From the NCBI GenBank assembly GCA_012838635.1, contig DUOW01000018.1:22764-86763 (forward strand): a stretch of DNA of 64,000 nt. The letters are read 5' to 3'. A program made the translations under genes and the position numbers. Source of the stretch: Acholeplasma sp. (GTDB lineage Bacteria > Bacillota_I > Bacilli_A > ML615J-28 > CAG-698). How positions within the stretch are numbered: position 1 is the first letter of the stretch; each line of letters starts with the position of its first letter. Positions 12,548 through 59,096 of this stretch are shown here, piece after piece. The notes beneath the pieces are model-generated. The model saw only the letters and a list, made by a program, of their open reading frames with translations, did not search any database and was not told the DNA's origin.

Positions 12548-12694
12548 CCTGTATCTCCTTCTTTTATATTATAACAAAAATTCTCTTAAACTTTAAGTAA
12601 AATCTTTGTAAAGAAAGTAATAAACAATATTTAATTGGTATTGAAAGCAATTTGTGATATAATTTAGTTAATAGATAATATGGTAGAGGTTAAT

Positions 12695-13690: not shown

Positions 13691-13691
13691 T

Positions 13692-14684
13692 ATGGCTTTT
13701 AGTTTAGGAAAGAATTTAAGAATTACTATATTTGGGGAAGCTCATAGTGAAAAAATGGGTGTTGTAATTGAAGGACTACCTGTAGGCAAAACTATTAATA
13801 TAGAAACAATCAAAGCAAATTTAGCTTTAAGAAGAAGTAAAACTTGTTTTGAAACGAAAAGAGTTGAAGATGATGAGTTTGAGATTGTTTCAGGCTACTT
13901 CAATAATAGGACAACTGGTGGGCCAGTTGCAATACTTGTTTCAAATAAAAGGCAAAAATCTTCTGATTATGATCCCAACACGATTAGACCATCTCATGCT
14001 GATTATGTTTCAAAAGTAAAATATGATGGTTTCAATGATTATCGTGGTGGTGGAATCTTTTCAGGAAGACTAACTGTGTTATTAGTTATTGCTGGTTCTA
14101 TTTGTTTAGATTTACTTCAAGAAAAAGAGATTACAATTGAAACTAATGTTACATCTATTGGTGGTGAAAGTAAGGAATACGAAACTTTGCTGGAAGAGAC
14201 AGTTAAAGAAAAAGATAGTTTAGGCGGAATTATTCAAGTTACAGTTAATAATTTACCAGTTGGTTTAGGGGAACCTTATTTTGATAAAGTGGATGCTTTA
14301 CTTGCAAGAGCACTTTTTAGTGTTCCTAGTGTTAAAGGAGTTTCTTTTGGTTTGGGATTTGCAATTACTAAACTTAAAGGATCTGAAGCTAATGATGAAT
14401 TTTATTATAATGAAGGTAGAGTGAAAACAAAAACAAATCATTCTGGTGGTATTAATGGTGGGATTACTAATGGAATGCCTTTAGTTATTAATGTTGCTTT
14501 AAGGCCAACGCCATCAATTGGTAAAGTCCAAGATAGTATTTCTTTAGATAAAAAAGAAAATGTAAAGTTAGAATTACAAGGGCGATATGATACAACTCAT
14601 ATTTTTAGGACACAAATAGTATTAAAAGCAGTTGTTGCTTTAGTCCTTTATGATTTATTTAGAGAAAATAAAAAAACTTGGTAA
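13692..14684 (+). CDS. aroC: chorismate synthase
   Basis: FGEAHSEKMGVVIEGLP N-terminus; conserved GGRSSARET-like core. Confidence 0.8.
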   Translation: MAFSLGKNLRITIFGEAHSEKMGVVIEGLPVGKTINIETIKANLALRRSKTCFETKRVEDDEFEIVSGYFNNRTTGGPVAILVSNKRQKSSDYDPNTIRPSHADYVSKVKYDGFNDYRGGGIFSGRLTVLLVIAGSICLDLLQEKEITIETNVTSIGGESKEYETLLEETVKEKDSLGGIIQVTVNNLPVGLGEPYFDKVDALLARALFSVPSVKGVSFGLGFAITKLKGSEANDEFYYNEGRVKTKTNHSGGINGGITNGMPLVINVALRPTPSIGKVQDSISLDKKENVKLELQGRYDTTHIFRTQIVLKAVVALVLYDLFRENKKTW

Positions 14685-14740
14685 TTTTTTGTTTTTAAAA
14701 ATACAAAATATGGTAATATATATGTAAGAGGAGAAAAAAC

Positions 14741-15802
14741 ATGAAAAAATTTTTAAGTTTTATTACTTTAATTCTTGTGTCTATTTTTCTAGTAGCTTGC
14801 GAACCAAAGAAAAAAGAAGTGGAATTAACTAAACAAGAAGTTGCTACAATGGCTAGTGCTGTTGAAGTGAGTGTTGATGGATCAGACGTTGTTAGTTTAG
14901 AATCTGACATCGATTTAAAAGTTGTATTGAAAGGTGCTGAAGGCTCAACAGTAGGTGATATTGAACTTACTGCTAAAGGTGAGATTGGTTTATATGCTGA
15001 TCTTGAAGAGTTTAGTAGTTCTTATATCTATGGTAAGATAGATGCGAATTATGAAATTAAGGGAAATCTTGAAGACTTCATTCTTGCACTAATGGGTATG
15101 GGAGAAGGAATGGCTGAAGAGAGAGCAGAAGAAATGACTGAAGATGAAAAAGCTGCTGTTCTTGCAATGCTAGGTATTAATTTAGATTTTCCTAAAAAAG
15201 GATCAGTTGCTGGAAATGTTTATGTTATCGCAGGTGTTGCTTATGTTGATTTAACAATCATTACTGATGGCACTGAAGTGAAAATGAAACGTTATGAAGA
15301 AGTATTTACTGAAGCAGAGTTCAATAACTTCAAAGCAGAACTAACTAGTGAAAAATTAGAAGTATCAGAATTAGATGTAGAAGAGTTATTAGAAGTAGCA
15401 AATCTAAAAACTTATAAAGTTGGCGATGCAAATCTATTTGAAATCTCATTGCGCAAAGAAGATTTAGATAAAGCTATTGAAAATGCCTTAGCAGAATTTG
15501 GCGATAAAGAAATGGCTGATGATGTTACACTTACTCATGAAGGTGATTTTGCAGCTAATTTCAGTATTAAATTCCAAGAAGCTTTAGAACAAGTTAAAGC
15601 TGATGCCAAGGCAGATTTAGAAATTGCCTTAACAATCGCTATGTCAGAAGATATGAACATTGCTCGAGAAATTTCAATTGATGCTAAGTTCAATTTCGAT
15701 TTGAACTTTAAAGGTAAAATGCCAAAAGGATTACCTAAAGCTGCAGATTTAAAAGATTATGAGCATGGCTTAGACTTTGATTTATTTGGTGCTGCTCAAT
15801 AA
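14741..15802 (+). CDS. hypothetical lipoprotein (LVAC lipobox), acidic
   Basis: Signal peptide plus lipobox. Confidence 0.55.
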   Translation: MKKFLSFITLILVSIFLVACEPKKKEVELTKQEVATMASAVEVSVDGSDVVSLESDIDLKVVLKGAEGSTVGDIELTAKGEIGLYADLEEFSSSYIYGKIDANYEIKGNLEDFILALMGMGEGMAEERAEEMTEDEKAAVLAMLGINLDFPKKGSVAGNVYVIAGVAYVDLTIITDGTEVKMKRYEEVFTEAEFNNFKAELTSEKLEVSELDVEELLEVANLKTYKVGDANLFEISLRKEDLDKAIENALAEFGDKEMADDVTLTHEGDFAANFSIKFQEALEQVKADAKADLEIALTIAMSEDMNIAREISIDAKFNFDLNFKGKMPKGLPKAADLKDYEHGLDFDLFGAAQ

Positions 15803-15821
15803 AAGAAAAGAATAAGATAAA

Positions 15822-15860
15822 GAAAACCGAGATGTGAAAGCACCTCGGTTTTTATTTTTT
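15822..15860 (+). terminator. rho-independent terminator
   Basis: ACCGAG...CTCGGT stem followed by T's. Confidence 0.6.
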
Positions 15861-15909
15861 AATGGTAAAATAGAGCAAGATAGGGTATAATATATAATAA
15901 GAGGTATTT

Positions 15910-17154
15910 ATGTATTATTTAATTGGGAAGAAAATTGGATATTCTTATTCACCTTATATTCATAAGAAGTTAGGGTCTTATAACTATGAAATAAAAGAAA
16001 TGAATAATATTTCTTCGTTTTTAAATACAAAAGAATTTAAAGGTATTAATATTACGATGCCCTTTAAAGAAGAGGTTATCAAGTATCTTGATTACCAAGA
16101 TCCAGTTGTAGAGGAAATTGGTGTTTGCAATACAATCGTTAATAATAATGGTAAGTTATATGGTTATAATACAGATTATGCTGGTTTTAAATATTTATTA
16201 GCAAATAACAATATTTCTGTAAAGGGTAAAACTTGTTATATTTTAGGAAGTGGGGCAACATCAAAAACAGTAGCCTTAGTACTAAAAGAATTACATGCTA
16301 AAAAAATAGTTACTGTATCTCGTGCTAAAAAAGGAATTGACTTTTTAAACTATCAAGACTTAAAAAACGATTATTACTGTGAGATTTTAGTAAACACAAC
16401 ACCAGTAGGAGTTTATCCTGATTTTGATAAATCGCCTGTAAGTTTGAAAGGTTTTAAAAAGCTTGAATTAGTAATTGATGTCAATTATAATCCTTTTAGA
16501 AGCAAATTAATGTTAGATGCTGCAAGTTTAAAGATAAACAATTATAATGGTTTAGAAATGTTAATCTATCAAGCTAAAGTAGCTAGTGAGTTATTTCAAA
16601 AGAGAAAAATAGACGATAGTGTTATCCAGGATATCAAAAGAAATTTACTTTTTTTAAGAAGAAATATCGTTTTTATAGGCATGCCAGGAACTGGTAAAAC
16701 AACAATCGCGAAGTTTATTGGGCAAGATTTTAAAAAGAAAGTTTATGATGTTGATAAAGAAATTTCTAAAGCTGAAGATATGAGTATTCCTGAACTTTTT
16801 CAAGAAAAAGGTGAAGAATACTTTAGAAAAAAAGAAAGTGAAACGATTAAAGAACTAGCTTTAAAAAGAGGAATCGTTATTGCAACTGGAGGCGGAGTTG
16901 TTTTAGATTCTAAAAACATGAATCAATTACAAGCTAACGGATTAATTGTGTTTTTAAATCGTGATTTAAAAAACATCTATTTACGCCAAGGCAAAAGACC
17001 TTTAATTAAATCGAAAGATGATTTAGAAAAGATCAAAGAAGAAAGAATAACACTATATAACAAATATAAAGATTTAGAAGTTAAAAATAACTATAGCATT
17101 AAAGAATCGATAAAAAAAGTTATCAAGGCTTTAAATGAATATAAGGAGGATTAA
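15910..17154 (+). CDS. bifunctional shikimate dehydrogenase / shikimate kinase (AroE-AroK fusion)
   Basis: N-terminal SDH fold. C-terminal P-loop IVFIGMPGTGKTT. Confidence 0.8.
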   Translation: MYYLIGKKIGYSYSPYIHKKLGSYNYEIKEMNNISSFLNTKEFKGINITMPFKEEVIKYLDYQDPVVEEIGVCNTIVNNNGKLYGYNTDYAGFKYLLANNNISVKGKTCYILGSGATSKTVALVLKELHAKKIVTVSRAKKGIDFLNYQDLKNDYYCEILVNTTPVGVYPDFDKSPVSLKGFKKLELVIDVNYNPFRSKLMLDAASLKINNYNGLEMLIYQAKVASELFQKRKIDDSVIQDIKRNLLFLRRNIVFIGMPGTGKTTIAKFIGQDFKKKVYDVDKEISKAEDMSIPELFQEKGEEYFRKKESETIKELALKRGIVIATGGGVVLDSKNMNQLQANGLIVFLNRDLKNIYLRQGKRPLIKSKDDLEKIKEERITLYNKYKDLEVKNNYSIKESIKKVIKALNEYKED

Positions 17155-17155
17155 G

Positions 17156-18157
17156 ATGATTATTGTATTAAAGAAAGTTGCCATTAATAATATCAAAGAA
17201 TTACTTAACTTTTTAGAATCAAAAAAGTTTGAAGTTAATTTCTTAGAAGAAAATAAAGTTTTATATTTAAAAGGAGAACTTGATGAACTTGATTTAAATC
17301 AATTAAAGGCTTTTGATGCTGTTGAAGAAGTTGTAGTTCTTGATACTCCTTATTATCAAGTGTTAAGAAAATGCCAAAAAGAAAATACTATTATTAAAGT
17401 AAAAGATGCTGTTTTTGGTTCTGGCTTAGAAATCATTGCTGGTCCTTGCTCGGTTGAAAGTAAAGAGCAAATTGATAGGATTGCGAAAAGTTTAAAGTTT
17501 ATGGGTATTAAAGCTTTAAGAGGTGGAGCCTATAAACCAAGAACATCTCCTTATACTTTCCAAGGTTTAGGAGAAGAAGCTTTAAAATATTTAAAAGCAG
17601 TAGGTGATAAATATAACCTAGCCATTGTTTCGGAAATAGTGTCAGAAGATGATCTAGACTTATTTATTAAATATGTTGATATTATTCAAGTTGGGACGCG
17701 AAATATGCAAAATTATGCGTTACTTAAAAAACTTGGTAAAATAAAAAAACCTATTTTATTAAAACGAGGTTTTGCTTCTACTGTAGAAGAGTGGTTACTT
17801 GCTGCTGAATACTTATTAAGTTTAGGAAATAGAGAAGTTATCTTGTGTGAAAGAGGAATTAGGTCAGTTGCCAATGGCTCAAAAGCAACTTTGGATTTAA
17901 ATGTTATTCCTCATTTAAAAAAGATTAGCCATTTACCAGTTATTGTAGATCCTTCTCATGGCACAGGTTTTTCTGAGTATGTAGAACCAATGAGTTTAGC
18001 TGCTGTTGCAGCGGGAGCTGATGGTTTGCTTATTGAGGTTCACCATGATCCTAAAACTGCTTTAAGTGATGGCGTTCAAACTTTATGCATAGAAAGATTT
18101 GCTCAACTTCTTAAAAAAGTTAAATCGTTGAAAGAGCATTTAGAAGAAAATGATTGA
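17156..18157 (+). CDS. aroF: DAHP synthase (class I-beta) with an N-terminal ferredoxin-like regulatory domain
   Basis: GPCSVES and KPRTSPY motifs. SD AAGGAGG before the ATG at 17156. The ORF track starts at 17135. Confidence 0.85.
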   Translation: MIIVLKKVAINNIKELLNFLESKKFEVNFLEENKVLYLKGELDELDLNQLKAFDAVEEVVVLDTPYYQVLRKCQKENTIIKVKDAVFGSGLEIIAGPCSVESKEQIDRIAKSLKFMGIKALRGGAYKPRTSPYTFQGLGEEALKYLKAVGDKYNLAIVSEIVSEDDLDLFIKYVDIIQVGTRNMQNYALLKKLGKIKKPILLKRGFASTVEEWLLAAEYLLSLGNREVILCERGIRSVANGSKATLDLNVIPHLKKISHLPVIVDPSHGTGFSEYVEPMSLAAVAAGADGLLIEVHHDPKTALSDGVQTLCIERFAQLLKKVKSLKEHLEEND

Positions 18158-19388
18158 AATCAAGCAAAGCAAAGCTAAAGGATTAGTAGTAGCACCCGCA
18201 TCAAAAAGTTATTTACAACGTTATATCTTAACTTCCTTTTATACAAAAGACAAAGTTACAATTAACAATGTTACTTATTCTAATGATATTTATGATGCTT
18301 TGAATGTTATTGAAGCTTTAGGCAAAAAAACTACAATTTTCCCTAAGCAAATAATTATTGAAGAAAACAAAAGTCCTAAGGATGAGTATTATATAAAGGA
18401 ATCTGCTACAACCCTAAGACTTTTAATTCCTATTTTATTTACTTTAAATAAAACTTGTACAATTTATTGCAAGGAAACTTTGCTTCAAAGACCTTTAGAT
18501 TATTACAAAGATTTAGCCTTAAAAAACGATTTTAATTTTAAAATTGAAAAAGATAAAATTGTTTTAAAAGGTAATTTAAAAGCGCAAAATTATTTAATTA
18601 CAAATCCAAAGTCAAGTCAATTTGTTTCAGGAATGTTAATTACTTTGCCTAGTTTAGCTAATGATTCAACAATAGAAGTTATAAATGAAGTTTCCAAGCC
18701 ATATTTAGAAATGACGTTAGCTACATTAAAAGAATTTGGAATTAAGATTACTTATCAAGATAACAAATATCTAATTAAAGGTAAACAAAAATATCAAGGT
18801 GTAAGTATAAATGTAGAAGGAGATTGGTCACAAGCGGCATACTTTTTTGCTTTAGCCTTATTCAACAAAGATTTAAAAATAACTAATCTTAATTTAAACT
18901 CACTACAAGGTGATAAAGCAATAGTAAATATATTGAAAGATTTTGGTTGCGAGATTGCTTATAAAAATGATTGTTTTATGTGCCTTAAACGAGAGTTTAA
19001 AAAGATGACTATTGATTTAAATGACATTCCTGATTTAGGACCAATTTTAATGGTTATTGCTTTGCTTGCCCAAGTAGAAGTAACTTTTATTAATACTAAT
19101 AGGCTTATTTATAAAGAATCTAATCGCTTAGATTTTATGTTATTTGAACTTGAAAAACTTGGCTTAAAATATAAAAAAGAAGATAATAAAGTTACCTTCT
19201 TTAAGTCGAATTTAAATTATAAGAAAATAGTTTTTGAAACATATAACGATCATCGCATTTTTATGAGTCTTGCTATTTTAAGTGCTATTATTCCTAATGA
19301 GACATTTATCAAAGGGGAAGAAGCAATAAATAAATCATATCCAGATTTTCTTAATGATTTGAAGAAACTAAATATTTGTATGAAATAA
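18150..19388 (+). CDS. aroA: EPSP synthase (3-phosphoshikimate 1-carboxyvinyltransferase)
   Basis: Typical length and fold. ATGA start/stop overlap with the upstream gene. Confidence 0.8.
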   Translation: MIEIKQSKAKGLVVAPASKSYLQRYILTSFYTKDKVTINNVTYSNDIYDALNVIEALGKKTTIFPKQIIIEENKSPKDEYYIKESATTLRLLIPILFTLNKTCTIYCKETLLQRPLDYYKDLALKNDFNFKIEKDKIVLKGNLKAQNYLITNPKSSQFVSGMLITLPSLANDSTIEVINEVSKPYLEMTLATLKEFGIKITYQDNKYLIKGKQKYQGVSINVEGDWSQAAYFFALALFNKDLKITNLNLNSLQGDKAIVNILKDFGCEIAYKNDCFMCLKREFKKMTIDLNDIPDLGPILMVIALLAQVEVTFINTNRLIYKESNRLDFMLFELEKLGLKYKKEDNKVTFFKSNLNYKKIVFETYNDHRIFMSLAILSAIIPNETFIKGEEAINKSYPDFLNDLKKLNICMK

Positions 19389-34786: not shown

Positions 34787-35920
34787 ATGAAACTATTTAA
34801 CTTTGAAGACGGCTATGTTGGGGAAAATAAAGGTCTTTTAGATTTCTTTATTAAAACTTTAAATGGCATGGCTTATGGCCTTTTTGCTACACTACTTGTA
34901 GGGACAATTTTAACTACTTTTGCTACATACGTTCCTTTACCAGAAGAAGTAAAGACAATTATTTTAACTGTAGCTTCGGTTATTAAAGGGTTAATGGGAC
35001 TTGGTATCGGTATTGGCGTCAGTATGAGTTTAAAACTTAGTGGTCTAAAGCTAATTGTTGCTTCAATTGCTGGTGGGATTGCTGTTTTATTTCCTCAAGC
35101 TTATACTCCAAGTACAGCTAGTTGGTGGACAGATTTTTCAGGAACTTCTAGTGATCCTTTAGTAATTTATGTTGTAGTTATTGGAACAATTTTTGTTATG
35201 AATACAGTTCTTACAAAAAAGACACCAGTAGATATTATTATCGTTCCTATTCTTGGAGTATTAACTGCTGCGTGTTTTAGTTTAATTGTAACTAAACCAA
35301 TTATTACTTTGATCTCTTATATTGGCAAATTCATTATTCTTGCAACTGATGCAACACCCTTTATTATGGGATTAGTTATTTCGGTTGTTATGGGGATGGC
35401 TCTAACAGCACCAATTTCTTCAGCTGCCATTGCTATTTCTATTCATTTAGGAACTAATGCTATTAATGCTGGATTTAGTGAAGCTGATGCTTATATTTTA
35501 GGAATTGCAGGTGGTGCAGCTTTAGTTGGATGCTGTAGCAATATGCTTGGGTTTGCAGTTATGAGTAGAAAAGATAATAATATTGGAACAATTATCTCAG
35601 TTGCTATTGGTACAAGTATGCTTCAATTTAAAAACATTTTAAAAAAGCCAATCATTTGGCTTCCACCGATTATTGTTAGTGCGATTTTAGGACCGCTATC
35701 GACTATGGTATTTAAAATGACAACAACATCAATTGGTGCGGGAATGGGAACTTCTGGTTTAGTTGGTCAGATTGAAACGATAACTTCAATGGGAGTTAAT
35801 GCTAGAAGCATTTTATCAATTTTAATCTTACAAATTATCTTGCCAATTGTTTTAGTGTGGATTATTGATATAATCTTTAGAAAATATAACCTTATTAAAA
35901 AAGGTGATTTAAAAATTTAA
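34787..35920 (+). CDS. polytopic membrane permease (family uncertain, PTS-EIIC/KdgT-like)
   Basis: About 10 TM segments. Confidence 0.45.
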   Translation: MKLFNFEDGYVGENKGLLDFFIKTLNGMAYGLFATLLVGTILTTFATYVPLPEEVKTIILTVASVIKGLMGLGIGIGVSMSLKLSGLKLIVASIAGGIAVLFPQAYTPSTASWWTDFSGTSSDPLVIYVVVIGTIFVMNTVLTKKTPVDIIIVPILGVLTAACFSLIVTKPIITLISYIGKFIILATDATPFIMGLVISVVMGMALTAPISSAAIAISIHLGTNAINAGFSEADAYILGIAGGAALVGCCSNMLGFAVMSRKDNNIGTIISVAIGTSMLQFKNILKKPIIWLPPIIVSAILGPLSTMVFKMTTTSIGAGMGTSGLVGQIETITSMGVNARSILSILILQIILPIVLVWIIDIIFRKYNLIKKGDLKI

Positions 35921-35949
35921 TATTAAATAATTTTGGTTTTTGATGCAAA

Positions 35950-36095
35950 ATTAAAAGGGAATCTAGTTAGAATCTAGAACAGCCCCCGCTACTGTAGAAG
36001 TGGAGTACTTTATTACTTATGATCACTTAAAGGAAACTTTTGGGAAGATCTATAAAGTATGATGATGCTTTAAGTCAGGAGACCTGCCGAGATTA
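35950..36095 (+). ncRNA. cobalamin (B12) riboswitch aptamer
   Basis: GGGAA at 35957. CAGCCCCCGCTACTGT at 35980-35995. B12 box AAGTCAGGAGACCTGCC at 36072-36088. Confidence 0.85.
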
Positions 36096-36140
36096 TAAAT
36101 AAGAATTTCGGAGGGAAATTTGTTATTAGTTATAAAAACA

Positions 36141-36166
36141 AAACTACCCTTTTCGGGTAGTTTTTT
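36141..36166 (+). terminator. riboswitch expression-platform intrinsic terminator
   Basis: aaaCTACCC-ttttc-GGGTAGttt followed by T6, 20 nt before the RBS of the 36187 gene. Confidence 0.75.
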
Positions 36167-36186
36167 AATAAAGAAAGGAGATTAGT

Positions 36187-37785
36187 ATGAAAAGAGCACT
36201 TATTTTTATCTTGCTTTTATTTGGCTTTGCTTTTAGTATTAACTTAAAAGCTGAAAGTGAAGAGATAAACTATAGTTCTGTAAATGATTGGTTAGTTTTA
36301 AAATATTATAAACAAGACCAAGATTTTAATAAAATTTATTATCGCGCCCAAATAAAAGAATATTTAAAAACGTTAGAGACTGATAAAATGACTGAATATC
36401 ATCGCTTGATTTTTGCATCACTTGCTTGTAATTTAGATCCTAGAAATATAAGTATTGATAATCAAGAATACGATTTATTAAAAATAGGTGTTTTTGATAC
36501 TAAACAGGAAAATCTTTTAGAAAAACAAGGGCTAAATAGTTTAATCTTTAGTTTGTTAGCACTTGATAGTATGAGATTTCCAAATGATGAAATTGAAGAC
36601 TATTATACTAGAGAAGATATTATTCATGAGATCTTAAAGAAAGAATTAAAGGCAGGGGGATTTGCTTATATTGGGACAGTCCCAGATCCTGATATTACCT
36701 CAATGACTTTACTTGCTTTAAGTAAATATCAAAATGATTTAACTGAATATAGAGTCTATTCAAAAAGAGAAAATAGAATTATTAATGTAAGAGTAAAAGA
36801 TGTAATCAATACAGCTTTAGATACTTTAGGTAGTCTTCAAGGTGAAGATGGAGATTTTTCTTCCTTTGGTTCTTATAACTGCGAGAGTACTTCGCAAGTT
36901 CTTTTAGCACTATCAAGTTTAGGTGTTGATCCATTGCTTGATACAAGATTTATTAAAAATGGTAATACTGTTTTAGATGGATTAAATAAATATAAACTAG
37001 AAGAAGGTAAATATAAAAGAGGAGATAATTATTCAGAAATAGCTACAAGACAAGCTGAAGAAGCATTATTAAGTTATAATAAATATCTAAATTCTCAAAG
37101 AACTTATTATGATTTGCTTCCTGAATTTAGTGAAACTGAAAGAGCAAAAATTATTAATTTAAAAAGCAAGATTGATGCAATTAATAGCACTACTAATTTA
37201 GAAGCATTATATCAAGAATATCTATCAATTCCTTACCGCGACCGTTTCTATATTTATAACTATAATAAGTTAGAAGAAAAATTAGTGGAAAATGGCATTG
37301 TTTTAAATGAAGAAAAAGAATATCCAGAAGTAGTAATTAAGGCATTAGTAATAGATAATTATAATAGTGCTGCTATTGAGCAAGATTTAAATGAAATAAT
37401 GATTTCTAAATATAATAAGTATTTATATTATAAAGAACTTTACGATATTTTAAAGAAAGATGATAGTTTAATTATTGATGCTATTTCTTTAATTAAAGAT
37501 GAAGAAATTAAAGTTGCAAGATTAAATAAACAAATTAAGGATTTTCTTGATAAAACTGAAGAAGACGAAGAAGAAGCACTTTTAATTAAAGAAAGTTATG
37601 AGTCCTTAAAATATGGTGGTAAAGACTATATTACAGAAGATTATAACGAAGTTTTGAAAGTAATAGGAGAAGAAAAGAAAGATTTATCTTTCTATATTTA
37701 CTTAAGTTTGATTATTGCTTTTATTGGCCTAACAACTACATTAGTTTTTGTAATTATTAAACGTAGGAGGGCTAAAAGGCTATGA
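36187..37785 (+). CDS. surface-anchored prenyltransferase/terpene-cyclase-like alpha6/alpha6 toroid protein (transcobalamin alpha-domain-like), signal peptide plus C-terminal TM anchor
   Basis: PFTB-type repeats (QGEDGDFSSFGSYNCESTSQVLLALSSLG; GGFAYIGTVPDPDITSMTLLAL). C-terminus LSLIIAFIGLTTTLVFVIIKRRRAKRL. Confidence 0.65.
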   Translation: MKRALIFILLLFGFAFSINLKAESEEINYSSVNDWLVLKYYKQDQDFNKIYYRAQIKEYLKTLETDKMTEYHRLIFASLACNLDPRNISIDNQEYDLLKIGVFDTKQENLLEKQGLNSLIFSLLALDSMRFPNDEIEDYYTREDIIHEILKKELKAGGFAYIGTVPDPDITSMTLLALSKYQNDLTEYRVYSKRENRIINVRVKDVINTALDTLGSLQGEDGDFSSFGSYNCESTSQVLLALSSLGVDPLLDTRFIKNGNTVLDGLNKYKLEEGKYKRGDNYSEIATRQAEEALLSYNKYLNSQRTYYDLLPEFSETERAKIINLKSKIDAINSTTNLEALYQEYLSIPYRDRFYIYNYNKLEEKLVENGIVLNEEKEYPEVVIKALVIDNYNSAAIEQDLNEIMISKYNKYLYYKELYDILKKDDSLIIDAISLIKDEEIKVARLNKQIKDFLDKTEEDEEEALLIKESYESLKYGGKDYITEDYNEVLKVIGEEKKDLSFYIYLSLIIAFIGLTTTLVFVIIKRRRAKRL

Positions 37786-38315
37786 AACGAAGAGATTTAT
37801 TGTTATTTGCCTTTTTAGTTTTAGTTGTAGTTGGTTTAATTTTTGGAGTAAAGATTGAAAGTGTTGATGAATACTATTTAAGAAATACTGAGAATATTAC
37901 TGAAGATAGTGAAGTAGTTTATTTACAGATTGAATGTAAAGTATTAATAAATAAAACTGAAAATATTAAACAATCTTTACTTGATGAAGGTATTATTCCT
38001 GATGATGGGATTTTCTTAAAAGAGAAGACTTTAGTTTTAAGAAATAAAGACACGGTTATGTCAATTCTAAAAAGAGCTAGTAGATATTATCGGTTTAATT
38101 TAGAAGGTGAAGGACTTAATGGCAGTTATTATATTGAAGGAATATATGATTTGTATGAATTTGATTGTGGACCTTTAAGTGGATGGTTATTTTATGTAAA
38201 TGGGGAAAGATCGGGGCAATCATCAGATAAAGTTTATTTAGAAAATGGCGATAAAGTCGTTTTAAAGTATTCTTGCGATATGGGTAATGATCTTTTAGGA
38301 GATGTTCATGAATAA
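37782..38315 (+). CDS. DUF4430 (transcobalamin-like C-terminal beta-domain) protein, N-terminal membrane anchor
   Basis: Hallmark GPLSGWLFYVNGERSGQSSDKVYLENGDKVVLKY. ATGA overlap with the upstream gene. Confidence 0.75.
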   Translation: MKRRDLLLFAFLVLVVVGLIFGVKIESVDEYYLRNTENITEDSEVVYLQIECKVLINKTENIKQSLLDEGIIPDDGIFLKEKTLVLRNKDTVMSILKRASRYYRFNLEGEGLNGSYYIEGIYDLYEFDCGPLSGWLFYVNGERSGQSSDKVYLENGDKVVLKYSCDMGNDLLGDVHE

Positions 38316-39189
38316 GATTAAGAGTTTCCATCCACTTACGATTTTTCTCTTCTTTATTTTGAATATGACCTTTACTTTATTTACTTATAATCCTATGATT
38401 TTAGGAATTTCGTTGGTAGTTAGTTTATTTTATTCTTTGTATTATCACGATTTTAAAATCTTTTTAGGAAATATCGGCTTTTATTTATTCACAATTTTGT
38501 TTATTGTTTTAATAAATCCATTGTTTAATCATCGTGGTTCAACAATTCTCTTTTTCTTAAATGAACAAGCTATTACTAAGGAATCAATTATTTTTGGTTT
38601 AGCTATTTCTATAGCCCTAGTTAGCATTATTGTATGGAGTTCAATTTTCTCTTATACAATGGATACTGATAAGAATATGTATTTGTTTTCTAGGGTATCA
38701 GTTAATCTAGCTATAATTATTGCTTTAGTTTTACGTTTTATTCCAGAAATGAAAAGAAAGAAACAAGAGTTTATTGATACTCAGACTACTTTAGGAATGA
38801 AGAAAACTAAAAGTTTAAGTGTAAGATTAAGTATAAGTTATCAGATTTTACTTGCATTAATAACTTGGTCTTTAGAGCATTATTTAACTTTAAGTTTAAG
38901 TATGAAGGCTCGAGGTTATAAACAAGGTAAAAGAAGTTATTATCATAATTATGCTTTTAAGTTAAAAGATTTTGTACTTCTATTATTTGGTTTTTTATTG
39001 TTAGCTTTTTATATTTATTGTAATTATCAAGGACATTTATACTTTTACTATTACCCAGTTATAGGACAGTTAAAAATAAATATTTATAGTATTATTTTGT
39101 TTAGTGCTAGCTTTTTGTTTATGATGCTACCATTAATTTATGAGATAGGAGTGAGCTTAAAATGGCATTTCTTAAGGCGAAAAATTTAA
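38302..39189 (+). CDS. ecfT: ECF transporter transmembrane (T) component
   Basis: CbiQ-family topology; conserved ARG motif (SMKARGY). Confidence 0.75.
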   Translation: MFMNKIKSFHPLTIFLFFILNMTFTLFTYNPMILGISLVVSLFYSLYYHDFKIFLGNIGFYLFTILFIVLINPLFNHRGSTILFFLNEQAITKESIIFGLAISIALVSIIVWSSIFSYTMDTDKNMYLFSRVSVNLAIIIALVLRFIPEMKRKKQEFIDTQTTLGMKKTKSLSVRLSISYQILLALITWSLEHYLTLSLSMKARGYKQGKRSYYHNYAFKLKDFVLLLFGFLLLAFYIYCNYQGHLYFYYYPVIGQLKINIYSIILFSASFLFMMLPLIYEIGVSLKWHFLRRKI

Positions 39190-40802
39190 GTTTTAGATAT
39201 TTAGATGATACCTTTACTTTAAGTAACGTTAACTTTTCTTTAGAGAAAGGTGATTTTTGCTTGGTTGTAGGTAAGACTGGGTGTGGTAAGACAACGCTAC
39301 TTAGGCTTTTGAAGAAAGAAATTACTCCTAGTGGTTCATTAAAAGGGGAAGTAAAGATTAATGGACTTGATTTAAAAGATTATGATTCAAATAAGATTGT
39401 TTATATGTTTCAAAATCCTTCAAGACAAATTGTTAGTGATAAAGTTTATCATGAGATTGTTTTTGGCTTAGAAGCAAGAGGTATTGAAAAGGAAGTTATG
39501 GAAGCTAAACTAGCGGAGATAGTAAATTATTTAGATATTAATGATTTACTTAATAAACATACAATGGAACTTTCTGGAGGAGAAGCCCAACTTGTAAGTT
39601 TGGCATCACTTTTAGTATTAGATCCAGAAGTCATTTTGCTAGATGAAGCATCATCACAATTAGATCCACTAACTAGAAAAAAGTTTTTAGAGATTTTAAA
39701 AAGAATTAATCAAGATTTTGGAATTACAATTATTTTAGTTGAACATAATTTAGAAGATGTTTTAGAGTTTACTGATAAAGTGATAGTTTTAGATCAAGGA
39801 AAGATGCTTTATTTTGGAGTTAAAGATGAGGCAATTGATTTTCTTGGCAATAATGAAGAATATTTTAATTTCTTATCAAAAACATTACAAATTTCCAAAC
39901 ATTTAAATTTAGGGAATTTGCTTCATTTGAAAGATGTTAAGGAAGCATTAAAAAGTAAGTACAAAAATGAGATTAATTTTGAGTATGAGATAAAAGATTT
40001 TGAAAAAGAAATCATTAAAGCAGAAGATTTATATTATCGCTATAGCAAGAAAGAAAGAGATGTTTTAGAAAAGCTTTCTTTAACTGTTTATGATAATGAG
40101 ATCTTAGGATTTGTTGGGGGAAATGGTGTTGGTAAAACAACATTACTTAAAAATTTAGCTGGAATTAGAACTTTCTATTCAGGTAAAATAGAGATTGAAA
40201 ATAAGAATATTAAGAAATATAAAGGTAATTCACTATATAAGAATTTAATAGCTTATTTACCACAAGATCCTCTAACATTATTCTTAAAACGAACTGTAGG
40301 TGAAGACTTAGGGTATTATGTAAAGAGTTTAGATTTAGATAAAGATTTATTAAATAGATTAATTAAGAAATTTAGGATTGAAAATTTATTAGAAATGAGT
40401 CCTTATGACTTATCTGGGGGAGAATTACAAAAATGTGCTTTTACAAAAATTTTGCTTTCGAAGCCTAAGATTTTACTTTTAGATGAACCAACTAAAGGTA
40501 TGGATTTTAGTTTAAGAGAAGAACTAAAAAAAATATTATTAGCATTACAAAAAGAAGGGGCAACGATTATTATTGCAACGCATGATTTAGAGTTTATTGC
40601 AAGTATTGCCGATAGAGTTGGAATTATGTTTAATGGTAAAGTTTTAAGCCTAACTGATAGTCATAGTTTCTTTAGCAACAGCAATTTTTATACAACTGTT
40701 GCTTCACTTGCATCAAGAAAGCTTTATGATAAAGTTATTACTGTTCCTGAGCTTGTAGAGATAGCTATGAAGAATGGAATTAAAGATGAAAAAGATAATT
40801 AG
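39162..40802 (+). CDS. ecfA: ECF transporter fused duplicated ATPase (EcfA1-EcfA2 / CbiO-type)
   Basis: Two Walker A motifs (GKTGCGKTT; GGNGVGKTT), two LSGGE signatures, two Walker B motifs. Confidence 0.85.
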   Translation: MAFLKAKNLSFRYLDDTFTLSNVNFSLEKGDFCLVVGKTGCGKTTLLRLLKKEITPSGSLKGEVKINGLDLKDYDSNKIVYMFQNPSRQIVSDKVYHEIVFGLEARGIEKEVMEAKLAEIVNYLDINDLLNKHTMELSGGEAQLVSLASLLVLDPEVILLDEASSQLDPLTRKKFLEILKRINQDFGITIILVEHNLEDVLEFTDKVIVLDQGKMLYFGVKDEAIDFLGNNEEYFNFLSKTLQISKHLNLGNLLHLKDVKEALKSKYKNEINFEYEIKDFEKEIIKAEDLYYRYSKKERDVLEKLSLTVYDNEILGFVGGNGVGKTTLLKNLAGIRTFYSGKIEIENKNIKKYKGNSLYKNLIAYLPQDPLTLFLKRTVGEDLGYYVKSLDLDKDLLNRLIKKFRIENLLEMSPYDLSGGELQKCAFTKILLSKPKILLLDEPTKGMDFSLREELKKILLALQKEGATIIIATHDLEFIASIADRVGIMFNGKVLSLTDSHSFFSNSNFYTTVASLASRKLYDKVITVPELVEIAMKNGIKDEKDN

Positions 40803-41484
40803 ATATGCGGTCATATTTGGCTTAATTCCTTTAATTTTGGTTTTGTTTTATTTTTTACTTGATTCAAAACAATATGGAATTATTTCTGTCTTAATTGCGA
40901 TATTGGCATTAATACCATTCTATTTATCTTTTGAAGGCTCAAAACCTAAAATTGAAGAGTTAATTCTAGTGGCAATTGTTATTGCTATTAATATCGTTTC
41001 AAGAATTCTTTTTGCACCTTTACCAGGTATTAAACCAATTGGGGCAATCATTATTATTGCTGCTTTAATTTTTGGAAAAGAAGCAGGGTTTATGATTGGC
41101 TCTTTAACAATGGCTATTTCCAACTTTTATTTTGGACAAGGACCATGGACACCATTTCAGATGTTTGGTTTTGGGATTATAGGTTATTTAGCTGGTTTAT
41201 TTAAGAATAATTTTTTAAAGAAAAATATCTATTTTGTTTTATTTTTAGGAGGGTTATCAGGAATCTTTTATGTTCTCTTGATTGATGTTTGGACAACACT
41301 TCAAGTAACATCAGGATTTAATTTTAAAGATTATTTTAACTTTATCATTATTTCAACCCCAACAACAATTGGTTATATGGCTTCAAATATGTTGTTTTTG
41401 ATCTTGCTTTATAAACCTTTGATGAATTTATTTGAAAGAATTCAAAAAAAGTTTAATCTTTTTAATGATAAAACTAGTAAATAA
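40774..41484 (+). CDS. putative ECF substrate-specific (S) component, CbrT-like (cobalamin)
   Basis: 236-aa 6-TM protein, last gene of the B12-riboswitch operon. Confidence 0.5.
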   Translation: MELKMKKIIRYAVIFGLIPLILVLFYFLLDSKQYGIISVLIAILALIPFYLSFEGSKPKIEELILVAIVIAINIVSRILFAPLPGIKPIGAIIIIAALIFGKEAGFMIGSLTMAISNFYFGQGPWTPFQMFGFGIIGYLAGLFKNNFLKKNIYFVLFLGGLSGIFYVLLIDVWTTLQVTSGFNFKDYFNFIIISTPTTIGYMASNMLFLILLYKPLMNLFERIQKKFNLFNDKTSK

Positions 41485-41511
41485 TAGTAATTAGTGATAT
41501 AATTACTTTTG

Positions 41512-41557
41512 TTAGATGTTCGCCTTGCATAACCATCTAAAATAAAAAACAAGGAGG
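41512..41557 (+). ncRNA. preQ1-I riboswitch
   Basis: P1 TAGATG/CATCTA with a UUC-containing loop. A-rich tail AAAUAAAAAAC. Pseudoknot CCUUG (loop) / CAAGG overlapping the SD AAGGAGG. Confidence 0.75.
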
Positions 41558-41562
41558 TAAAA

Positions 41563-42057
41563 ATGAAAGTTATTGTGAGGAATGCTTTAATAGCAGCGCT
41601 TTATGTAGTCTTTACAATTATCAATCCTTTTTCTTTTGAAAACATTCAATTTAGAATTTCTGAAGTATTGATTTTGCTTGTTTTCTTTAGAAAAGACTAT
41701 TTCTTAGGATTAGTTGTTGGCTGTATTATTGCTAATATGTTTAGTCCAATGGGTATTTATGATGTCATCTTTGGAACGTTAGCTACTGTTTTAAGTTTAA
41801 TCTGTATTATGTACTCTAAACACTTATTTATTACTTGGATCTTTCCAACTGTGTTTAATGCTTTTATTGTTGGGTTAGAATTATACTTAATTTTAGAGTT
41901 GCCATTTTGGTTAAGTGTTCTAGGAGTTGCAATTGGAGAAGCAGTTGTAATGATTATAGGGGTAGTTTTATTTTATTTCTTAAAAAGAAATGATGCTTTT
42001 ATGAATTTAATAAAAGCTAATCAAAACTATACTTTTAAAGATGATTTAAGTAGTTAG
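41563..42057 (+). CDS. queT: queuosine-precursor transporter QueT (ECF-type S component)
   Basis: 164-aa 5-TM QueT-like protein directly after the preQ1 riboswitch. Confidence 0.7.
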   Translation: MKVIVRNALIAALYVVFTIINPFSFENIQFRISEVLILLVFFRKDYFLGLVVGCIIANMFSPMGIYDVIFGTLATVLSLICIMYSKHLFITWIFPTVFNAFIVGLELYLILELPFWLSVLGVAIGEAVVMIIGVVLFYFLKRNDAFMNLIKANQNYTFKDDLSS

Positions 42058-42088
42058 TGGATGTAAACGTTTTATGTGATGAAAATGC

Positions 42089-42117
42089 TGGACATTCATT
42101 TAAATATGGGGTATAAT
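42089..42117 (+). promoter_or_regulatory. promoter (TGGACA, 17 bp spacer, TATAAT)
   Basis: Positions the TSS ~25 nt upstream of the leader-peptide ATG. Confidence 0.5.
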
Positions 42118-42147
42118 GAAAATAATAAAATTAGGAGGAAAAGAACT

Positions 42148-42207
42148 ATGTTAGTTAATTTTCAAAACAAATTTTATTACTATTATTACTTTCCAAGGAT
42201 ATCATAA
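42148..42207 (+). CDS. 19-aa leader peptide MLVNFQNKFYYYYYFPRIS with five consecutive Tyr codons
   Basis: SD AGGAGG 9 nt upstream. Tyr run flanked by Phe codons. Confidence 0.55.
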   Translation: MLVNFQNKFYYYYYFPRIS

Positions 42208-42249
42208 AGGTTTCTTGGCCTTTTTCCTGTTGTGAAAGTGCCAATATAA

Positions 42250-42351
42250 CTGTTATTATGATATCAAACGTAAAAGTTTAATTGATAAGTAATAACAGTA
42301 TTCTAAAATATTATTAGATTAAAATGTGTTATTACTTATAACACATTTTTT
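42250..42351 (+). promoter_or_regulatory. transcription attenuator with mutually exclusive 1:2 / 2:3 / 3:4 helices plus a T-run
   Basis: Region 1 CTGTTATTA 42250-58. Region 2 ATAAGTAATAACAG 42285-98. Region 3 TGTTATTACTTAT 42327-39. Terminator GTGTTAT-tactt-ATAACAC + T6 at 42326-42351. Confidence 0.55.
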
Positions 42352-42371
42352 AATTTAAGGAGGTTTATAAA

Positions 42372-43349
42372 ATGAAATTAAGAAGAATGCTAGGAATGAT
42401 TTTAGTATTTATATTTGGTGTTTTATTAGTAGGTTGTAAGAAAGATGATAAAACACAAATCGGGATTTTGCAACTTGTTGCAGCACCTGCTTTAGATGAA
42501 GCGAGAATTGGCTTTTTAGAAGTATTAGAAGAAAATGGATTTAAGGATGGAGAGAATATTAAAGTTACTCTTGAAATCCCTAATGCAGACCAAACTGTTA
42601 TGATGCAACAAGCAAAAAGTTTAGTAAGAAAATCAGATCTTATTTTATCTATTGCCACAAACGCAACAGCAGCAGCCCAAAATGCTTTAATTGAAGCAAA
42701 TAAAACGACACCGCTTTTATTTACAGCAGTTACTGATCCAGTAGCTCATGGATTTGTAGAGTCAATGGCTAAACCAGGAGGTCATATTACTGGTACTAGT
42801 GATATGAACCCAGTAGTAGAACAAGTAGGGCTTGCAAAAGATCTTTTACCTGAGGCAACTAAGATTGGCTTCTTATATAACTCAAATGAGGAAAATTCAA
42901 GAGTTCAAGTAGAAATGGGTGTTGCAGCAGCTGAAAGTTTAGGAATGACTACTGTTGTAAAAACAATTAGTGAAGTTAACCAAATTGATCAAGTTGCAAG
43001 AAGTTTATTTAATGATGTAGATATTGTTTATGTACCAACGGATAATATGTTAGCTCAAAATATGGTACTACTTACAAATCTTTCATTAAGTACAAAGAAA
43101 CCAATTATTGCTGGTGAAGAAAATCAAGTTCGTGATGGAGCTTCAATTACATTTGGTATTAACTACCGTGATTTAGGAAGACAAACAGGACAAATGGCAG
43201 TTGAGATTTTGAAAAATGGTAAGAAACCTCAAGATATTCCTGCTGCTGTGTCAGAAACATATACTTTAATTGTAAACAAAACAAATTTAGAAGCAATGGG
43301 TATTACTGTTAGCCAAGCATTATTAGATAAAGCTGACGAAGTTATTTAG
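42372..43349 (+). CDS. ABC transporter substrate-binding lipoprotein (COG2984 / ABC_sub_bind family; predicted amino-acid importer)
   Basis: LVGC lipobox; family-typical periplasmic domain. Confidence 0.75.
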   Translation: MKLRRMLGMILVFIFGVLLVGCKKDDKTQIGILQLVAAPALDEARIGFLEVLEENGFKDGENIKVTLEIPNADQTVMMQQAKSLVRKSDLILSIATNATAAAQNALIEANKTTPLLFTAVTDPVAHGFVESMAKPGGHITGTSDMNPVVEQVGLAKDLLPEATKIGFLYNSNEENSRVQVEMGVAAAESLGMTTVVKTISEVNQIDQVARSLFNDVDIVYVPTDNMLAQNMVLLTNLSLSTKKPIIAGEENQVRDGASITFGINYRDLGRQTGQMAVEILKNGKKPQDIPAAVSETYTLIVNKTNLEAMGITVSQALLDKADEVI

Positions 43350-43363
43350 AAAGGAGCATAGTT

Positions 43364-44299
43364 ATGGAATTAGTAAGTGTCTTATTTGATTCCTTACAAG
43401 AAGGATTAGCATATGCTATTTTAGTTATAGGTGTTTTTATTTCTTTTAGAATGTTAGATTTTGCGGATATGACATGTGAAGGATCGCTAACAATGGGTGC
43501 TGCAATTACAATGGTAATGATTACTAGTGGAATTAATCCTATTTTAAGTGTCTTAGTTGCCTTTGTTTTAGGAACTATTGCAGGTATTATTACGGCCTTA
43601 CTTCACACAAAATTAAAAATACCACCTCTTTTAGCTGGTATCATTATGATGACTGCTTTATATTCCATTAACTTGCAAGTTATTCAAGGTGGAAGATCAA
43701 CAGTTATTATGACTTATGGGGAAACAAAAACTATTTTCTCATTTTTAGAAAATATGATTCCATCTACATCATTTATTACAAACTTTCAAAGTTCAAAATT
43801 AATTGTTTTAACACTAGTATTGATACTTGTTTTCTTTGCAATTTACTATTTCTTTGGAACAGAAATTGGTATGAGTATTAGAAGTACAGGCATGAATAAA
43901 GATATGAGTAAAGCAATGGGAATTAATACTGATTTAATGATTATTATCGGCTTAGCCCTATCAAATGGTTTAATTGCTTTAAGTGGATCTTTAATCGCCC
44001 AAAAAAATGGTAGTAGTAATATGGATATTGGAAGAGGTACTTTAGTTATCGGACTTGCAGCAATCATTTTAGGTGAAGCTATTTTTGGTAAGAGGACATT
44101 TAAAAACTGGTTGATTTCTGTCATTTTAGGTTCATTTATTTACCAAATAATTGTAGCTATCGCAATTAATGTTTTTGGTTTAAATCCAAACTTCTTGAAG
44201 TTAATCCAAGCTGTTTTAATTGTAGCTATTTTGGCTATTCCTTTAATCAAGTCACAAATTAAAAAATTTAAAACAAGAAAGGAATTAAAAGCATGTTAG
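43364..44299 (+). CDS. ABC transporter permease (COG4120 family)
   Basis: Multi-TM protein, operon partner. Confidence 0.75.
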   Translation: MELVSVLFDSLQEGLAYAILVIGVFISFRMLDFADMTCEGSLTMGAAITMVMITSGINPILSVLVAFVLGTIAGIITALLHTKLKIPPLLAGIIMMTALYSINLQVIQGGRSTVIMTYGETKTIFSFLENMIPSTSFITNFQSSKLIVLTLVLILVFFAIYYFFGTEIGMSIRSTGMNKDMSKAMGINTDLMIIIGLALSNGLIALSGSLIAQKNGSSNMDIGRGTLVIGLAAIILGEAIFGKRTFKNWLISVILGSFIYQIIVAIAINVFGLNPNFLKLIQAVLIVAILAIPLIKSQIKKFKTRKELKAC

Positions 44300-45081
44300 A
44301 ACTTAAGAACATAACAAAGATTTTCAATCCTGATATACTAGAAGATAGAAGAGTAGCTTTAGATAATCTTTCTTTAGAAATTGAAGATGGTGAATTTGTG
44401 ACTGTTATTGGTAGTAATGGTTCTGGTAAATCGACACTATTAAATATTATTAATGGTAAATATATGCCTGATTTTGGAAAGGTTATTTTGGATGGTGAAG
44501 ATATTACGAGTTTAAAACAACACCAAAAAGCAAAATATATTGGAACTGTTTTTCAAGACCCTCATCAAGGAACGGCAAGTCAAATGTCTGTTTTAGAAAA
44601 CTTTGAGATTGCTAAGCGCCGAGGGAAAAGAAAGACATTAAAATGGGGTTTTAGTGCGCAAAATAGAGAAGATTTTATTGTACAATTGAGTAAATTTGAT
44701 TTAGGCTTAGAGAAAAGATTAACCCAAAAAATTGGGACTTTATCTGGAGGTCAAAGACAAGCAATTACTTTAATTATGGCTACTTTAAATAATCCAAAAT
44801 TATTATTACTAGATGAGCATACAGCAGCATTAGATCCTAATACTGCTACAAAAGTATTAGAGATTACCAATGAAATAATTAAAGCAGAAAAACTAACAAC
44901 AATTATGGTTACTCATAATATGAAAGATGCCATTAATTATGGGGATAGACTAATTATGTTAGATCAAGGGAAGATTATTTTCGATTGTAAGGGTGAAGAG
45001 AAGAAAAACTTAACTATTCCAGTCTTACTTCAAAAATTCTCTTCTAAAGCTGTAATTAATGATGAATTGATATTAAGTTAA
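44293..45081 (+). CDS. ABC transporter ATP-binding protein (COG1101 family)
   Basis: GSNGSGKST Walker A, LSGGQRQ signature, LLLDEHTAALD Walker B. Confidence 0.85.
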   Translation: MLELKNITKIFNPDILEDRRVALDNLSLEIEDGEFVTVIGSNGSGKSTLLNIINGKYMPDFGKVILDGEDITSLKQHQKAKYIGTVFQDPHQGTASQMSVLENFEIAKRRGKRKTLKWGFSAQNREDFIVQLSKFDLGLEKRLTQKIGTLSGGQRQAITLIMATLNNPKLLLLDEHTAALDPNTATKVLEITNEIIKAEKLTTIMVTHNMKDAINYGDRLIMLDQGKIIFDCKGEEKKNLTIPVLLQKFSSKAVINDELILS

Positions 45082-58255: not shown

Positions 58256-58711
58256 ATGAGTAAATCATTTATGGCTAATAATCAAAACATTGAAAGAAAA
58301 TGGTATGTTGTTGATGCAACAGATTTAGTTTTAGGTAGATTATCTACTGTTGTTGCTAGTCTTTTAAGGGGAAAAGGTAAACCTACATATACACCACATG
58401 TTGATTGTGGAGATTATGTAATTATTGTTAATGCTGAAAAGATTAGACTTACAGGAAAGAAATTAGAAGATAAAATTTATTATCGCCATTCTAATTATCC
58501 AGGCGGTTTAAAACAAGAAACTGCAGGACAATTATTAGAAAGACATCCAGAAAAAGTATTAGAGCAATCTATCCGTGGTATGCTACCAAAAACTAAATTA
58601 GGTAATGCTATGTATCGTAAACTTTTTGTTTATAAAGGAGCTGAACATCCACATCAAGCTCAAAAACCAGAAGTTTATAAGATCGAGCAAAAGGAGGTAG
58701 GAAATGAGTAG
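58256..58711 (+). CDS. rplM: 50S ribosomal protein L13
   Basis: ERKWYVVDA signature. Confidence 0.9.
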
Positions 58712-59096
58712 AGTTCAATATTACGGAACTGGAAGAAGAAAGTCATCAATTGCAAGAGTTAGATTGATCCCAGGAACAGGCGAAATCACTATTAACGGAC
58801 GCAAATTTGTTGATTACATACCTTCACCTGCAACACGCCTAGACGTGTTACAACCATTAGAGTTAACAAATACTACTAATAGTTACAATGTTTTAGTAAA
58901 TGTTAGAGGTGGTGGAATCACTGGTCAAGCTGGTGCGATTAGACACGGAATTACGAGAGCACTACTTGAACTTAATCCTAATTTTAGACCAGTTCTAAAA
59001 CAAGCAGGATTAATTACAAGAGATCCAAGAGCTAAAGAGAGAAAGAAATACGGACTAAAGAAAGCTCGTCGTTCACCACAATTCTCAAAACGTTAG
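58704..59096 (+). CDS. rpsI: 30S ribosomal protein S9
   Basis: C-terminal ...[16 protein letters not shown]. Confidence 0.9.

Follow-up and report, generated by a model that had tools for sequence, protein, structure and literature searches.

A cobalamin riboswitch precedes a five-gene group-I ECF transporter operon, probably for corrinoids, in an uncultured Acholeplasma

What does the ECF (energy-coupling factor) transporter encoded behind a cobalamin riboswitch in an uncultured Acholeplasma carry into the cell, and does it serve that cargo alone? The transporter was found in a 64,000-nucleotide stretch of the Acholeplasma sp. assembly GCA_012838635.1 (contig DUOW01000018.1, positions 22,764 to 86,763 of the forward strand; G+C content 28.8%), hereafter the window, to which all positions below refer unless another locus is named. 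Genes for a transmembrane T component, a fused double ATPase (AA′) and a substrate-binding S component follow one another at 38302–41484, directly downstream of genes for two exported proteins. All five products are public as HHU21345–HHU21349, from a metagenome-assembled genome, and bear only generic names ('ECF transporter S component', 'ATP-binding cassette domain-containing protein', 'hypothetical protein'). We assign the region with good confidence to the CbrV/CbrU/CbrT type, as a riboswitch-repressed group-I ECF importer for cobalamin (vitamin B12) and related corrinoids. What this adds to the GenBank names, namely a corrinoid importer of CbrVUT type under B12 regulation in an uncultured Acholeplasma, is routine annotation; the locus is of modest wider interest for two questions taken up below, namely whether such transporters carry B12 or heme and whether they are fed by proteins outside the membrane.

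The S component gives an indication of substrate. Its gene occupies 40774–41484 on the forward strand and encodes 236 aa, with a likely start at the fifth codon (40786), as in GenBank and most homologues, that would give 232 aa. The protein matches the Pfam families ECF-ribofla_trS (PF07155, 47.3 bits) and ECF_trnsprt (PF12822, 35.7 bits), both over their cut-offs. Its best sequence match in the PDB is CbrT of the Lactobacillus delbrueckii complex ECF-CbrT (6FNP), with an E-value of 3.9e-10 in phmmer that improves to 6.2e-20 when a family profile of 30 sequences is used, and the alignment covers 173 of the 182 CbrT residues. The sole other PDB match is HmpT (4HZU_S; 0.11 by phmmer and 6e-5 with the profile). 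CbrT binds cobalamin with nanomolar affinity and transports both cobalamin and cobinamide, and hemin does not compete for cobalamin uptake (PMC5997447). An AlphaFold model of the window protein (predicted local distance difference test score, pLDDT, 89.9) displays the six-helix S core preceded by two extra transmembrane helices (residues 2–28 and 31–52; 40774–40950), which are shared across the family and have no counterpart in L. delbrueckii CbrT. The initial annotation of this DNA, made by a model from the sequence alone, had described a six-helix membrane protein, a count that applies to the core of what is predicted to be an eight-helix chain. All of the top 21 Foldseek matches to the model in the PDB are S components (FolT, HmpT, RibU, PanT, BioY, ThiT and NikM/CbiM), with target template-modelling scores of up to 0.72. 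The 6FNP CbrT chain is not among these matches, and no E-value is better than 0.04; with E-values this weak, the fold search identifies an S component without singling out CbrT. Across profile, PDB and fold searches, no non-ECF family matched the 236-aa protein, and among solved structures CbrT came out best, in keeping with the CbrT-like assignment proposed initially.

Regulation points in the same direction. A cobalamin riboswitch aptamer (Rfam RF00174) lies on the forward strand at 35917–36105 and matches the full model (1–189) with 110.9 bits, compared with a gathering score of 31.5; it is the sole Rfam match at the gathering threshold in the entire window. It is followed at 36140–36170, on the same strand, by an intrinsic terminator of the expression platform, AAAACTACCC-TTTTC-GGGTAGTTTT and then a T-run, whose 10-bp hairpin folds as RNA with −12.9 kcal/mol (z −3.34), with the U-run after it. 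The palindromic hairpin was also flagged by a terminator scan. The 5′ to 3′ order is riboswitch, terminator, ribosome-binding site, gene 1 start, which is the usual layout of what would be a transcription-terminating B12 'off' switch.

Downstream of this leader, five co-directional genes on the forward strand overlap consecutively by 4, 14, 28 and 29 nt: gene 1 (36187–37785, 532 aa), gene 2 (37782–38315, 177 aa), the T component (38302–39189, 295 aa), the ATPase (39162–40802, 546 aa) and the S component. A scan of 35700–42500 returned no terminator-like site past 36896. The initial annotation had placed three transporter genes in tight overlap with two upstream binding-protein genes behind a single cobalamin riboswitch, and this architecture is borne out, with the three open reading frames (295, 546 and 236 aa) exactly at the stated coordinates. 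With S, T and AA′ co-located and overlapping by 14–29 nt, the genes are probably co-transcribed, and a complete S, T and AA′ set behind one riboswitch fits, as far as sequence can tell, the definition of a group-I system, the more so as the layout is kept in relatives.

The T component (EcfT/CbiQ, 'CbrV' in the nomenclature discussed below) matches Pfam CbiQ with 39.7 bits (cut-off 25; E 5.5e-10). A single-sequence PDB search with it returned only chance matches to MotA, so that a family profile was needed: built from 22 members, the profile matched solved EcfT chains with E-values ranging from 3.4e-23 (5D3M_D, the L. delbrueckii EcfT that is also present in 6FNP) to 1.7e-16, with L. brevis EcfT at about 1e-16. 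The Ala-Arg-Gly (ARG) motif ascribed to this protein at the outset is indeed present, at residues 203–205, and 22 homologues keep it with little or no variation; RFIP, at 145–148, forms part of a second coupling-helix motif, (A)LRFIP. The chain extends about 55 residues past the canonical EcfT end (39020–39189) and there carries an added hydrophobic segment (261–279). No NCBIfam model matched the T component or either of the proteins encoded by genes 1 and 2.

The 546-aa ATPase ('CbrU') carries two ATP-binding cassette (ABC) domains in one chain, with Pfam ABC_tran matching twice (183.9 bits). Both cassettes are complete, as had been claimed, and carry every canonical motif: Walker A at 37 and 319, a Q-loop in each, LSGGE at 137 and 417, Walker B with its Glu at 157–162 and 437–442, and the H-loop His at 195 and 474. 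The top-ranked NCBIfam models are those of the ECF ATPases TIGR04520 and TIGR04521, for which scores summed over the two domains (311.2 vs 315 and 307.3 vs 330, respectively) fall short of the cut-offs of these equivalog models, which represent the shared EcfA1 and EcfA2; the cut-off of TIGR01166 (cbiO), 211.8, is passed with a score of 214. EcfA1 and EcfA2 are both among the best single-domain PDB matches. Where the initial annotation saw the fusion as a departure from the usual separate genes, within this family it is the rule, as the comparison with relatives reveals.

The S-component family comprises 3128 proteins at E ≤ 1e-5, from which 80 genome loci were sampled, representing Bacilli, many Clostridia and a single Coriobacteriaceae bin. 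An ATPase gene stands directly upstream of the S gene in 75 of the 80, and where the ATPase gene is uncut the full two-cassette fusion is present in 65 of 66 loci. A family T gene was found in 62 of the 80, a gene 1-like (alpha-like) gene in 43 and a DUF4430 (gene 2-type) gene in 39, the last two mostly upstream and at times downstream of the transporter genes. The order T-AA′-S is near universal. Conservation across the sampled loci marks both the ATPase fusion and the gene order as traits of the family. Likewise, the S-family signature SNFYFGQGPWTPFQMF is invariant across the family. An nhmmer profile detected a cobalamin riboswitch, upstream of the transporter genes and in their orientation, in at least 17 of the 80 loci, a lower bound, and Rfam located one in 5 of the 15 loci that were scanned. 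The expectation that all relatives would have the riboswitch thus failed, with about a third of the Rfam-scanned loci possessing one; B12 riboswitch control is frequent in the family but not universal. Regulation differs within the family, and the substrate possibly does too. As a separate observation, three loci (L003, L036 and L040) hold a full-length S homologue without an ABC ATPase gene upstream, and these may be solitary, group-II-like copies of an otherwise operon-bound family.

Comparison with known systems places the window set as an ordinary member of a widespread Firmicute/Mollicute B12 uptake family, whose five-gene layout has already been described. With L. delbrueckii ECF-CbrT (6FNP; PMC5997447) it shares a homologous S component of the same fold with the common motif SN..(F/L)G.G.WT..Q, a homologous EcfT (3.4e-23) and a link to B12 through gene context or regulation. 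The L. delbrueckii system belongs to group II, its solitary 182-aa CbrT working on shared EcfA, EcfA′ and EcfT, whereas the window module is encoded together with its S component. The window system further differs in its one-chain ATPases, the two additional N-terminal helices of S, the approximately 55 extra residues of T and the two exported-protein genes ahead; the S components are about 24% identical. A second homologous set lies on the L. plantarum plasmid pMF1298-5, where it was named CbrV, CbrU and CbrT after Rodionov et al. 2009 (PMC6722938), a family definition that we use second-hand. The plasmid displays the same order: T comes first, then a double ATPase of 554 aa, then an S protein of 236 aa that is 33% identical to that of the window and has the same N-terminal extension. 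A DUF4430 gene lies in this cluster, and cobS and another S component adjoin it, giving a B12-related neighbourhood. There, the DUF4430 gene and a gene for a 350-aa protein follow S rather than preceding T, and no cobalamin riboswitch was found. A third known system is the L. sakei cluster lsa1836–1840, which encodes alpha-like and beta-like transcobalamin proteins, a T component, a fused A/A′ ATPase and an S component (10.1101/864751). Lsa1837 was read in that study as possibly uniting the A and A′ subunits in one chain, and extracellular transcobalamin-like proteins feeding an ECF S component were already proposed there for L. sakei (10.1101/864751). The five-gene order of this type, seen in the L. 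curvatus counterpart (locus L082), is identical to that of the window. L082 differs in a nearby Dyp-type peroxidase gene, an LPXTG-anchored alpha-like protein and the lack of a cobalamin riboswitch, against a riboswitch and a C-terminal membrane anchor in the window. Its S component is 31% identical to that of the window (E 9e-16) and, like the pMF1298-5 protein with which it clusters, keeps the family signature.

The two upstream genes raise the question of how the cargo would reach the membrane. Gene 2 encodes a DUF4430 protein (Pfam PF14478, 45.7 bits, cut-off 23.8) with an N-terminal hydrophobic segment (7–25) that would serve as signal or anchor. In vertebrate transcobalamins, DUF4430 forms the C-terminal domain (PMC4350170), which makes gene 2 a candidate counterpart of the beta domain of transcobalamin. 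For gene 1, neither Pfam nor the PDB gives a sequence match, and single-sequence PDB searches with the 532-aa and 177-aa proteins returned nothing. The gene 1 product has hydrophobic segments at 4–22, likewise a predicted signal or anchor, and at 506–524, and an AlphaFold model (pLDDT 84.9) displays an (alpha/alpha)6 barrel, for which Foldseek retrieves prenyltransferase beta subunits, transcobalamin (7QBE, 4ZRP and 2BB5) and haptocorrin (4KKI) at probabilities of 0.9–1.0 but with weak E-values. Gene 1 is a candidate equivalent of the transcobalamin alpha domain. Gene 1 homologues carry the prenyltransferase repeat PF00432, and in four of them (P0141, P0145, P0148 and P0149) DUF4430 resides in the same chain; these predicted fusions recreate the transcobalamin pair of alpha barrel and beta domain in one bacterial protein. 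Reading genes 1 and 2 as a 'split transcobalamin' is thus plausible, not proven. At its C-terminus (37700–37785) the gene 1 protein has a transmembrane anchor and then KRRRAKRL, whereas its L. curvatus homologue (L082 2069–3697) ends in an LPXTG cell-wall anchor; the replacement looks like an adaptation to the wall-less Acholeplasma host.

Taken together, these features suggest the following scheme. At low intracellular adenosylcobalamin, the riboswitch (35917–36105) would let RNA polymerase pass the terminator (36140–36170), and one transcript would then yield all five overlapping genes. The two exported, membrane-tethered proteins would catch the corrinoid outside the cell in the manner of the transcobalamin halves and presumably hand it off to the CbrT-like S component, which would bind it in the membrane and topple against T, with ATP hydrolysis by both intact cassettes of the 546-aa ATPase resetting the cycle. 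The extra helices, two N-terminal ones in S and a C-terminal one in T, could be a docking or hand-off site for the capture proteins; these family-specific segments might also tether S to T. More broadly, we put forward tentatively, as a possibility we rate below even, that the family consists of ECF transporters with extracytoplasmic capture proteins of their own, a transcobalamin split into two membrane-tethered pieces. By the textbook rule, ECF transporters use no soluble binding proteins. External capture, if true, would contradict this rule, and the B12 carrier fold of animals would then have a counterpart in bacteria. To our knowledge, no group-I CbrVUT system with both transcobalamin-like partners has been biochemically characterised.

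Several observations weigh against the corrinoid assignment, and one of them leads to a different cargo. In L. sakei, heme accumulation was impaired by deletion of lsa1836–1840 and recovered on complementation (10.1101/864751); because the mutant lost heme accumulation, a heme ECF system was proposed for that homologous cluster of the same architecture. The L. curvatus counterpart of identical layout, with its S component homologous to that of the window and its neighbouring Dyp-type peroxidase, fits such a function, and heme, or tetrapyrroles broadly, might by extension be the substrate here as well. We regard this as quite unlikely for the window operon, which lies directly behind a high-scoring cobalamin riboswitch and terminator that L082 lacks. 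The riboswitch is shared by the nearest relatives, L001 and L005, and the window holds no heme-related gene (Dyp-type peroxidase or catalase), unlike L082. Furthermore, the inability of hemin to compete with cobalamin for the characterised CbrT (PMC5997447) argues against heme, and the lactobacillus subgroup to which L082 belongs includes the pMF1298-5 copy beside B12 salvage genes. Other points against cobalamin concern the evidence itself. Its transport by this operon is something we infer from sequence, across a pairwise identity to the characterised CbrT of only about 24% and despite the two N-terminal helices that CbrT does not possess. The fold search with gene 1 does not distinguish between transcobalamin or haptocorrin on one side and prenyltransferases or terpene cyclases on the other. 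Within the fetched flank, 10 of the 15 Rfam-scanned genome loci and both lactobacillus loci gave no cobalamin riboswitch; complete five-gene operons with none at the Rfam gathering threshold within 8 kb upstream are those of L008, L010, L011, L031, L039, L044, L045, L053, L057 and L066. Nor was any B12-dependent enzyme or salvage gene found in the window and the 10 kb past its 3′ end. This last absence bears in the opposite way on a variant in which the cargo would be mainly incomplete corrinoids (cobinamide, cobyrinic acid diamide) for salvage instead of finished B12. Such a cargo would agree with the listing of cbrUVT under 'cobyrinate diamide uptake' and the linking of CbrT paralogues to alternative B12 vitamers in comparative-genomics reviews (PMC8123684, PMC6593275), with the transport of cobinamide as well as cobalamin by CbrT (PMC5997447) and with the cobS gene adjoining the pMF1298-5 copy. 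It is nonetheless improbable, given that cobS, cobU, cobT and cbiB are all missing from the 64-kb window and the 10 kb past its 3′ end and that known transcobalamin-like binders are for complete cobalamin; long salvage pathways would also seem unlikely in small-genome relatives of Acholeplasma. Uptake of cobalamin together with related corrinoids remains the preferred reading.

Whether the module serves the S component of this operon alone is a second matter, raised by the gene that comes next. An orphan S component for queuosine precursors, queT (41563–42057; Pfam QueT 6.8e-43), begins 78 nt downstream of the S gene, and the same adjacency occurs in L001, L002 and L005, the three closest relatives with downstream sequence. 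The T-AA′ module might then also energise QueT, as a hybrid of groups I and II, and no other ECF module is available to it in the window or the 10 kb past the 3′ end. The window search, with Pfam on most open reading frames of at least 110 aa and phmmer with the operon's proteins as queries, detected no second CbiQ/EcfT or ECF module, and the only other ABC ATPase (44293–45081) belongs to a binding-protein-dependent system of the ABC_sub_bind/BPD_transp_2 type, which upholds the initial statement that the window has no other energizing module. The contig extends the view by 10 kb past the 3′ end, where only ribosomal and housekeeping genes were found, and by 1.7 kb past the 5′ end. The leader of queT argues against sharing. 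It contains an extended −10 box, TGATATAAT, at 41491–41499 and a preQ1-I-like element at 41509–41558 that scores 19.6 bits in Rfam, under the gathering score of 39, and whose loop CCUUG can pair with CAAGG of the queT ribosome-binding site; promoter and element are both conserved ahead of queT in L005 and L002. With a promoter and leader of its own, queT is therefore separately regulated, and its membership in the B12 operon was ruled out. The adjacency is moreover confined to close relatives, and the window is a small part of the genome, in which a standard ecfA-ecfA′-ecfT may exist elsewhere. We thus consider energisation of QueT by this module very unlikely, and the module is predicted to be exclusive to its own CbrT-like component.

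With respect to the wider genome, rplM and rpsI (58256–59096) are preceded by metG and not by ecfA-ecfA′-ecfT-truA. In Bacillus subtilis, ecfA-ecfA′-ecfT-truA lies upstream of rplM. With metG in this position, any shared ECF module therefore lies elsewhere in the Acholeplasma genome.

The sole genetic study of a homologue assigned heme. A riboswitch-controlled member such as the one described here is accordingly a clean candidate for the question of B12 versus heme, and for that of external capture by ECF transporters.

At some distance upstream of the operon, the window contains a run of shikimate-pathway genes at 12680–19388, comprising those for dehydroquinate synthase, chorismate synthase, a shikimate dehydrogenase/kinase fusion, 3-deoxy-D-arabino-heptulosonate 7-phosphate (DAHP) synthase and 5-enolpyruvylshikimate 3-phosphate (EPSP) synthase, an unexpected biosynthetic capacity for a Mollicute-like genome.

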